IMG/VR virus record: IMGVR_UViG_3300027908_000012
Span: 1-44,235 of that record
From: a virus
Strand: one strand, 5' to 3'
Length of the DNA: 44,235 bases
Positions 19,713 through 21,867 of the stretch are shown piece by piece. Under the pieces are notes generated by a model, which saw only the letters and a program-made list of their open reading frames with translations, was not told where the DNA came from and did no database searches. Position 1 is the stretch's first letter. Each line of letters opens with the position of its first letter. A program made the position numbers and the translations under genes.

Positions 19713-19832
19713 TCAGCTTTGCCTAGCGGCCGCATAATCCATTTCGACTTCTTGGTGCGCCCTAACACCCTCAGCAGCACGATCATCAAGCGTCTCCAAG
19801 GCTCTCTGAAAAGTTTTGGGAATTATATACAT
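19713..19832 (-). CDS. Possible 39-aa ORF
   Basis: It has a TAATG overlap with the upstream stop. It competes with a 55-aa ORF (19619-19786) in another frame. Confidence 0.25.
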   Translation of the reverse strand: MYIIPKTFQRALETLDDRAAEGVRAHQEVEMDYAAARQS

Positions 19833-20014
19833 TAGTACCTTTTCTTTTTTCGCTTCTTTCGTCGCGCACGTTTTTTGGCAGCTTTCGTTTTGGGCTTAGG
19901 ACGGTATGCGAGTACACGGTCAGTCACGCGGTCTAAGAGATGGCATGAACAATTACACTGATTCCATCCACATTCATCGTGTTTTCCGGCAATGCAAAGC
20001 TCGCTGCGAATCAT
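19832..20014 (-). CDS. Cys-rich small protein with poly-basic tail (60 aa)
   Basis: ATGA overlap with the transposase stop. The sequence is CIAGKHDECGWNQCNCSCH followed by KAAKKRARRKKRKKKRY. Confidence 0.45.
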   Translation of the reverse strand: MIRSELCIAGKHDECGWNQCNCSCHLLDRVTDRVLAYRPKPKTKAAKKRARRKKRKKKRY

Positions 20015-20929
20015 GCGATGAGCCTCTCGTGAGTGAGCCGTTTGCCTGCAACCGCGTCCACGAAGGAATCGAGCCGTTCCGTGGTATGCCGCGCAACGTT
20101 GCCTTCATTCAGACGAAACGCAAACTCATTGACGTAGCGACCGAGATGCTTTTTGCTGACTTGATGGTAGACACCGTGCAATCCGCGTTTCAGGACTGCC
20201 CAAACACTCTCGATGCTGTTTGTGGTAGCCATCCCGCGCACGTATTCGCCCGCAGAATGGTATAACGCGCTCTTGCTTGAAGAACAGGCCGTCCAAGTCG
20301 TTATAGGCTCCGTGTTCGTCTGTGAACAGCGTAGAGCCGACTTCAATGTTGCGGTGAATGGCGTTCTGGACTTCCTCGATGCTCACGCTCTTGAGAGGCA
20401 TCGCCTTGGTGCGACCGCCGCGCTCCCGCATTCCGAGTACCGGAGTTTTGCCGACCGAGCCACGCCCCTGTTTCAGTTTGTCGCCTTCGTGTTTGTTGCT
20501 CTCCAATCCGCCAACGAAAGTCTCATCAATCTCGACAGAGCCGCGCAACTTAGCCAAGTCCTTACCACACGCCTCCCGGAGACGGTGAAGAACGAACCAA
20601 GCCGACTTTTGAGTGATTCCAATCTCTTTGGCGAGTTGCATAGAAGAGATGCCCTTGCGAGCCGTGACAAGCAAATACATAGCATAGAGCCACTTGTGCA
20701 GCGGAACGTGCGACCGCTCGAAGATAGTCCCCGTTCGCACGGTGAAGTCCAGTTTGCAGGCGTTGCAGCGGTAGTAGCCATCCTTGCGGACGGTGATTCG
20801 CTCCATGCTCTTGCACTCCGGGCAGGTGACGCCATTAGGCCAGAGCCGCGATTCGAGGTACACGCGAGCCGAGGCTTCGTCGGGATACATCTCGAAGAGT
20901 TTGAAGGTGCTGATCGTGGAGCGGCTCAT
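20011..20929 (-). pseudogene. IS1595-family (ISXO2-like) DDE transposase, reading frame broken by a single extra nucleotide near 20261-20264
   Basis: The N-terminal frame (20126-20929) carries the zinc-ribbon CPECKS...CNACK, an HTH (SSMQLAKEIGITQKSAWF) and EIDETFVGG...LFTDEHGAYNDL. The family motif HSAGEYVRG..TNSIES.WAVLKRG..GVYHQVSKKHLGRYVNEFAFR continues in the +1 frame (20011-20346). Deleting one base in GTTATACC restores ..ERV(N/Y)HSAGEYVRG. Confidence 0.8.
20899..20929 (-). repeat. Direct repeat copy B: transposase start (MSRSTISTFK)
   Basis: It is 28/31 nt identical to 21067-21097. The three differences are all synonymous third-position changes. Confidence 0.9.
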
Positions 20930-21051
20930 AATTCTAATTCCTCCGACTCGACTTCCTCATCTGTGGCTGCTTCGTTTTCCGTCCTACAAGTGCAACACTG
21001 CCAACACGTATTGCACCAACAGCATTCAACGCAGGCTCCGCATTCACACAT
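20926..21051 (-). CDS. 41-aa Cys-rich / acidic-tailed micro-ORF (below track cutoff)
   Basis: Hand translation: MCECGACVECCWCNTCWQCCTCRTENEAATDEEVESEELEL. There are 10 Cys in the first 22 residues. GAGG lies 6 nt upstream, and the stop forms an ATGA overlap with the transposase start. Confidence 0.35.
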   Translation of the reverse strand: MCECGACVECCWCNTCWQCCTCRTENEAATDEEVESEELEL

Positions 21052-21066
21052 CGCCAACCTCGTTCG

Positions 21067-21097
21067 GTTTGAAGGTGCTGATAGTCGAACGGCTCAT
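21067..21097 (-). repeat. Direct repeat copy A: orphan copy of transposase start, heads a 17-codon ORF (MSRSTISTFKPNEVGDV)
   Basis: The ATG at 21097 forms an ATGA overlap with the stop of gene 21094-21291. The copy lies 168 nt (56 codons) upstream of copy B. Confidence 0.9.
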
Positions 21098-21291
21098 CGG
21101 CTCACCTGTGCAGCAGCTGCATTTCTTCGCATTATGTCCTGTGCGCGGCAAAGTCCACAGGTTTTGTGTCCGCTAGGCTTGGTCTTTTGCGTAACCCACA
21201 ATTCGTGGCCGCAGGCGAATGACACGAACCACTGGCGCGAATTCAAGGGAGATTGTTTCGCTTGGAGAATTAATCGTCTAAAGAGTCTCAT
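21094..21291 (-). CDS. Small zinc-ribbon-like protein (65 aa)
   Basis: ORF-track entry with a CGH...CGLC pattern. Confidence 0.45.
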   Translation of the reverse strand: MRLFRRLILQAKQSPLNSRQWFVSFACGHELWVTQKTKPSGHKTCGLCRAQDIMRRNAAAAQVSR

Positions 21292-21481
21292 TGGTTACCC
21301 ATCCTTCTGGCCGAAAGCCCCAAAAGTACCACGCCAACCGATAATCAGATTTTCCTGTCAACTTATGGAGATGATTGCAGTTATTGGCGTCGGCTACATG
21401 ATTGTTCGAGTGCGAGCAAATAGGACATACACTCGTCTTTGTTTCTGGATTCATTTGGACCTTGTAAAATTTGTTTGCCAT
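21278..21481 (-). CDS. Small Cys/His-rich protein (67 aa from ATG 21481)
   Basis: ATG 21481 is preceded by GGAG (9-nt spacer) and lies downstream of a TTGACA-N17-TACACT promoter. The pattern is CPICSH...NNCNH. Confidence 0.45.
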   Translation of the reverse strand: MANKFYKVQMNPETKTSVCPICSHSNNHVADANNCNHLHKLTGKSDYRLAWYFWGFRPEGWVTNETL

Positions 21482-21503
21482 GCGAGGTGTCTCCATGTCC
21501 ACC

Positions 21504-21532
21504 AGTGTACTTAACTCCCTTGCCGTTGTCAA
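21504..21532 (-). promoter_or_regulatory. Sigma70-type promoter TTGACA-N17-TACACT
   Basis: In reverse complement, TTGACA is at 21527-21532 and TACACT at 21504-21509. It overlaps the HNH stop codon. Confidence 0.45.
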
Positions 21533-21867
21533 GGGTTATTTGGGGAGTCATGTATATAAGTCCCAAAGTTTTTACTCGTGCGGAATTGCGGGTTGCGGTT
21601 GCCGTGGAAGCGTTTATGGCAGGGGGCACAACTAGCCACTAAATTTCCCATGGATTCGTCGCCGCCCTTGCTTCGTTCTTTGTCGTGGTGCATATGCATG
21701 GTTTCTTCGGTGATTGGCCTATTGCAGCCGTTCATTTCACAGAAGCCTCCGCAACGCTCCCAAACTTCATGCCTTCTGACGCTGGTGTCCTCGCCATACA
21801 GGAATTGCCGGCCATCCCTGCTTATGAATGAGCGGGGATCAAGGAAACCTCTTCGGATAGTCTCCAT
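21529..21867 (-). CDS. HNH endonuclease (112 aa from ATG 21867)
   Basis: CEMNGC...HMHHDKERSKGGDESMGNLVASCAPCHKRFH is a classical HNH motif. The upstream part of the 158-aa track ORF overlaps the exonuclease gene. Confidence 0.8.
   Translation of the reverse strand: METIRRGFLDPRSFISRDGRQFLYGEDTSVRRHEVWERCGGFCEMNGCNRPITEETMHMHHDKERSKGGDESMGNLVASCAPCHKRFHGNRNPQFRTSKNFGTYIHDSPNNP

Follow-up and report, generated by a model that had tools for sequence, protein, structure and literature searches.

A second transposase start in a passenger-carrying IS1595-family element of a P22-like phage: a probable scar of recombination between sister elements

How does a transposase gene come to be preceded by a second copy of its own start, with a small gene lodged between the two? 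The question is raised by a virus genome of 44,235 nt (the window). On its minus strand, nucleotides 21097-21067 and 20929-20899 are identical at 28 of 31 positions, with a start-to-start spacing of 168; the chance expectation of such a repeat pair anywhere in 44 kb is about 3e-5. The differences fall at positions 9, 12, and 15, and all three are synonymous third-position changes. A preliminary description had reported this duplicated transposase 5′ end with only synonymous differences, and had stated that the upstream copy is ATGA-coupled to the preceding gene (the 65-aa ORF at 21291-21094) and stops after 17 codons (21097-21044); all of this is confirmed. It had also spoken of a 168-bp insert. 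The figure is correct as a spacing, but the unique DNA between the copies is only 137 bp, and one repeat copy makes up the rest. The junction contains the following features.

21067..21097, minus strand: relic transposase 5′ end, 31 nt, of sister-element type, assigned from the repeat and from sister comparison
21044..21097, minus strand: 17-codon chimeric bridge ORF, 10 transposase codons followed by 7 codons of presumed incoming DNA
20926..21051, minus strand: gene for a 41-aa Cys-rich, acidic-tailed micro-protein, with homologues P0001 and L208:1194-1337 and under purifying selection
20011..20929, minus strand: IS1595 transposase (Zn ribbon and DDE), frameshifted, identified by PF12760 and PF12762 above cut-off and by sister comparison

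The repeat and the micro-ORF were thus correctly seen in the preliminary description, but the insertion sequence that encloses them, with its inverted repeats and 8-bp duplication, was missed. The parts of this element are listed below.

19818..21564, minus strand: IS1595-family element with passenger genes, 1,747 bp, delimited by inverted arms, an 8-bp target duplication, and the transposase domains
21543..21564, minus strand: left terminal inverted repeat, a 21/22 match to the consensus of related elements
19818..19839, minus strand: right terminal inverted repeat, which includes the basic ORF's stop codon and, within TAATG, an ATG that reads outward
21565..21572, minus strand: left copy of the target-site duplication, AAAACTTT, within the 3′ end of an HNH gene
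19810..19817, minus strand: right copy of the target-site duplication, a perfect 8-bp match to the left copy
21504..21532, minus strand: sigma-70-like promoter TTGACA-17-TACACT in the constant left end, a consensus match only, kept in close sisters
21278..21481, minus strand: cargo ORF 1, 67 aa, from the ORF call
21094..21291, minus strand: cargo ORF 2, 65 aa, with a four-ligand Cys/His pattern and homologues in L206 and L024
19832..20014, minus strand: basic ORF, 60 aa, with a variable N-terminus and a constant Lys/Arg-rich C-terminus

By all the criteria tested, the element belongs to the IS1595 family and is a transporter IS (tIS). It has terminal inverted repeats and an 8-bp target duplication, and most of the viral loci in the comparison set (80 viral and 80 genome loci plus 11 close sisters) show the same ends and an 8-bp duplication. 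Its end motif may fit the ISNwi1 subgroup. The transposase matches PF12762 (DDE_Tnp_IS1595) in two frames, at 78.6 and 58.2 bits (cut-off 27), and PF12760, the N-terminal Zn ribbon present in all IS1595 groups except IS1016 (PMC8101967), at 49.5 bits (cut-off 25.4). Transporter IS are defined by passenger genes unrelated to transposition within their ends (PMC11891212), and here three cargo ORFs lie between the left end and the transposase. The intact transposase frame of an active IS is absent: relative to five sisters, one extra T at ~20262 causes the frameshift, reflecting either recent inactivation or an assembly error. Frameshifted or truncated transposases also occur in several close sisters (L206:2301-2355, L296:766-1128, L297:1289-1705). 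The score of the promoter match is not above shuffle expectation. Within its spacer and -10 box (21504-21520) lies an inward copy similar to the terminal repeat's reverse complement; this copy is conserved in sisters and may be a transposase site for autoregulation.

The virus is a complete P22-like phage: the 44-kb record is complete, with terminal repeats, and its portal and coat proteins are P22-like. The six chromosomal relatives that stand closest all come from Acidobacteriota MAGs (6/6), and therefore the phage host is probably a member of Acidobacteriota. Also encoded, among 42 further phage ORFs, are a GroES-like co-chaperonin and a protein whose PHROG match bears the annotation cysteine dioxygenase. 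The insertion site is in the last codons of the HNH gene, and the target octamer has just two occurrences in the whole phage genome. The interrupted HNH frame receives its stop from the left end of the element (21529-21564). The right inverted repeat (19818-19839) contributes an ATG that reads outward and shares bases with the stop of the basic ORF; translation coupling within the host operon may thus have survived the insertion. Among related elements, this outward ATG is present in close sisters only.

The gene between the two transposase starts is a real one. Its first 22 residues hold 10 Cys and 2 Trp, and 9 of the last 19 are Asp/Glu; GAGG at 21061-21058 stands 6 nt before the ATG, and the stop overlaps the transposase ATG, in agreement with the preliminary description. 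Only one homologue, P0001 (41 aa, E 5.6e-6), emerged when 1.84 billion proteins were scanned in full with HMMER; it comes from a phage-like small-gene cluster on a 1.2-kb contig without a transposase. A second homologue, not annotated as a gene, is L208:1194-1337 (47 aa, GTG start). It is carried as cargo by the sister IS L208; over the 220 residues compared, the transposase of this IS shows 96.8% identity. All three members keep the same start residue, 8 Cys, Trp12, and the acidic tail, and pS is saturated (0.85-1.05) versus a pN of 0.28-0.33: the Cys ORF is under purifying selection. With start and Cys residues kept and pN far below pS, the region is neither non-coding nor interrupted in its relatives, and the early reading of it as a coding gene and a movable cassette stands. 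The gene is rare and mobile between contexts, having been found in three different gene neighborhoods. Conservation of the two other sense frames is poor (9-10/40 residues), and an antisense frame mirroring the conservation was ruled out by a stop in a homologue.

The family remains at three members. No new one appeared in word-index searches, and back-translated searches of viral contigs with two- and three-member alignments gave no match; related DNA was not found in GenBank phages. A stricter DNA pattern matched the P0001 contig alone among metagenomes and had zero matches in GTDB genomes. A Cys-only DNA pattern was abandoned in viral contigs, where antisense poly-Gln repeats swamped its matches. 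The preliminary description could not place the peptide in a family, and neither could we: none of the three members matches Pfam or NCBIfam at E up to 10, and the micro-protein has no PHROG match, no significant PDB sequence match, and no usable ESM Atlas match. Two AlphaFold models (mean pLDDT 59 and 50) disagree, one giving a hairpin and the other a helix, and are unreliable.

Bacterial metallothioneins (SmtA/BmtA) and Cys-rich zinc micro-proteins have <60 aa and are Cys-dense, with CxC, CxxC, and CC motifs. The peptide shares this size, density, and set of motifs, with 8-10 Cys in 22 residues, and had been called metallothionein-like or RiPP-precursor-like. However, it has no profile match in Pfam or NCBIfam, its Cys spacing, CxC-x5-CxxCxxCxxCCxC, is different, and its invariant Trp, long acidic tail, and phage and IS context also set it apart. 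No metal-responsive regulator, no radical-SAM or other RiPP enzyme, and no RiPP-type protease or transporter was found among the 42 further phage ORFs or the annotated neighbors of the homologues. We reject a RiPP precursor because there is neither a nearby modifying enzyme nor a leader peptide, the Cys-rich part starting at residue 2 in all three members; a RiPP enzyme of the host acting in trans is still conceivable. The likeness to metallothioneins is a loose analogy at most. Judging from composition, the micro-protein is quite likely a cytoplasmic Zn-thiolate protein with a flexible acidic tail, metal binding being suggested because the 8 invariant Cys would be enough for two Zn sites. Its role can only be guessed at on the same grounds: tentatively, it may be an accessory effector whose acidic tail binds a basic host or phage protein, and a role as a metal buffer ranks below this as a doubtful alternative.

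Comparison of the element with its sisters demonstrates rapid exchange of passenger genes. Sisters with 80-88% identical transposase DNA have a common left end of about 60-95 bp that comprises the inverted repeat, the promoter, and the ribosome site. Past this end, close sisters diverge completely, and homology resumes at the transposase start codon or a few bases from it. Cargo DNA is common to only 2 of the 120 pairs formed by 16 close elements. At the protein level, some cargo genes recur at different positions, and the Cys-gene homologue in L208 likewise occupies a different position. Of 94 cargo-bearing elements, 81 have an ORF whose end lies no more than ~10 nt from the transposase start, a raw count with no background rate. 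L008 and L009 are ~95% identical in cargo and 82% identical in transposases, the switch lying within the first ~40 nt of the transposase; this is direct evidence that crossovers occur there. In one Nitrospirales genome, a relative (L284-L292) is present in seven copies at different sites with identical 642-bp left arms, so transposition itself leaves the cargo unaltered, and another process must be responsible for its replacement. Our literature search found no paper on fast cargo turnover in phage-associated IS1595 elements, which is weak evidence, the primary papers on the family lying outside that search. In L081, a 130-bp stretch ~2.1 kb upstream of the transposase is 68% similar to the transposase 5′ region and is probably a Zn-ribbon-only paralogue.

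Cargo ORF 1 has no Pfam match above cut-off and no PHROG match, and a homologue is absent from the fetched loci. Cargo ORF 2 has a homologue in sister L206 (32% identity), where it is directly coupled to the transposase, and another in L024, outside any IS. In nearly all related elements, the last gene is a short basic ORF, coupled to the stop of the transposase. The N-terminus of this ORF is hypervariable across elements, sometimes with a Cys/His cluster, and the ORF is a second variable slot of these elements.

The two copies of the transposase start can be placed against this background. The upstream copy matches L004 and L296 at 30/31 nt each, versus 28/31 for its own downstream neighbor, and each of its codon variants occurs in working sister transposases. 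From the downstream start, close sisters differ at 2-7 of 31 nt. Under neutral decay, three changes would all be synonymous with P of about 0.6-1.1%. Because of the synonymous-only differences, the sister codon variants, and the 30/31 sister match, each copy appears to be the start of a different sister element and to have been functional until recently.

The preliminary description had explained the repeat by insertion of a small cassette at the transposase start with duplication of the target. Such an event, with a 31-nt duplication and later divergence of the copies (e.g., by synonymous drift of the working copy or conversion from a sister), would leave unique DNA bracketed by a direct repeat and a preserved working gene, which is what we observe, and later conversion is possible, since crossovers near transposase starts occur. 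Yet all changes must then have been synonymous, at about 1% if neutral, or confined to the live copy, and the upstream copy is closer to other sisters than to its supposed twin. Moreover, the element's own transposition makes 8-bp duplications, and none like the 31-nt one is seen where cargo is joined elsewhere. We consider a target duplication an unlikely origin of the repeat. Integrative elements such as e14 and phage 21 offer a partial parallel: at icd, a site-specific integrase inserts them at a fixed site in many strains, and a part of the target gene is duplicated in the process. As at our locus, a diverged synonymous gene-end repeat brackets the incoming DNA, and an intact gene is restored; unlike them, our case is single and lacks an integrase.

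The extreme cargo turnover, with its breakpoints at the start codon (the 81/94 count, for which there is no background rate), could also suggest a dedicated, integron-like insertion of cassettes at the transposase start, our locus being a captured intermediate. This is very unlikely: no integrase or other recombinase was recognized in the element, and neither a conserved attachment-like sequence nor a recurrent repeat was found at cargo junctions. The precision of the breakpoints is explicable by selection for coupling. Across the 152 distinct elements, repeats of the transposase start of at least 7 nt are not enriched (2 observed vs 0.9 expected), and recurrent micro-duplication of the start was rejected on the same count. 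A 7-nt tandem echo of the transposase start stands just before the relic copy (21090-21104), and a similar one precedes the L296 transposase start (L296:753-773).

An artifact is less probable still. An assembler might have fused two sister elements from one sample, given that sisters have short near-identical starts and that the transposase also has an extra base. However, the genome is complete and has terminal repeats, the target duplication remains intact on either side of the composite element, at nt 31-32 the junction shows no evident homology by which an assembler could be misled, and coupling is kept at both joints. We regard an assembly chimera as highly improbable.

The most probable explanation, to which we assign a probability of about 0.68, is that the repeat is the scar of recombination between two sister elements, inside a cargo-carrying IS1595 element. 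In one of them, A, cargo ORF 2 would have been coupled straight to the transposase. An illegitimate crossover 31 nt into A's transposase would then have attached DNA of the other, B: its Cys gene with 15 nt of the preceding sequence, and the start of its transposase. This DNA would have arrived either in linear form or as a 168-bp circle integrating by homology. The joint probably survived because the leftover 17-codon ORF keeps the translational coupling from ORF 2 through the Cys gene to the transposase. The stop of this bridge ORF overlaps the Cys ORF start by 8 nt, and an 8-nt overlap of the upstream gene with the Cys-gene start is also seen in L208. The composite element would have subsequently transposed into the phage, with the transposase frameshifted afterward, unless the extra base is an assembly error, and the Cys gene would be expressed from the element's putative promoter. 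A hairpin pairing the relic copy with the Cys-gene ribosome site was rejected (z about 0 to 0.3), and Rfam gave no match.

The arrangement predicted for A, ORF 2 coupled directly to the transposase, exists in L206, though at 32% identity only. A search of metagenome contigs for the junction pattern gave 0 matches, and neither direct parent was found. Against the two-sister recombination, the scar is unique among the 152 distinct elements, no other of which has a second copy of its own transposase start, and the pathway rests on one case. A broader interpretation makes the clade an expression-and-shuffling platform, with a slot for small phage effector genes between the constant promoter end and the constant transposase start and possibly element-directed exchange that far outpaces transposase divergence; the scar would be a rare captured intermediate, and the product a Zn-binding acidic micro-protein of a new class acting on host or anti-phage machinery. 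Taken as a whole, this combination is improbable.

Two known systems are close to the element. One is the tIS of the IS1595 family (Siguier, Gagnevin and Chandler 2009, as cited in PMC11891212 and PMC8101967). These tIS share with our element the Zn-ribbon and DDE transposase, ends beginning with GG, the 8-bp duplication, and passengers inside the ends. Unlike in tIS, the passengers here are tiny and phage-type, form one operon translationally coupled with the transposase, and have almost nothing in common from one sister to the next, even though these sisters are 80-90% identical; this copy is further peculiar in its relic second transposase start. The other system is the PeSL regulatory cassettes of the T4-type phages RB49 and phi1, where small circles can carry ORFs and recombination anchored in conserved promoter-bearing DNA shuffles small non-essential ORFs, as in our elements, but PeSLs are dispersed promoter-terminator repeats with no transposase (PMC2839356). 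Here the anchors are the IS end and the transposase 5′ end, and the whole unit also transposes.

In summary, the duplication by itself represents a single accident rather than a new system, but it illustrates cargo exchange. To our knowledge, there is little direct evidence on how insertion sequences acquire passenger genes. The scar and the sister elements together show one concrete route: sisters cross over at the 5′ end of the transposase, and translational coupling acts as the filter. The 41-aa Cys-rich, acidic-tailed protein represents a new, unplaced micro-protein family, with three verified members and of no known type, and the clade as a whole is a natural library of real, expressed-looking micro-genes that are often missed by annotation.
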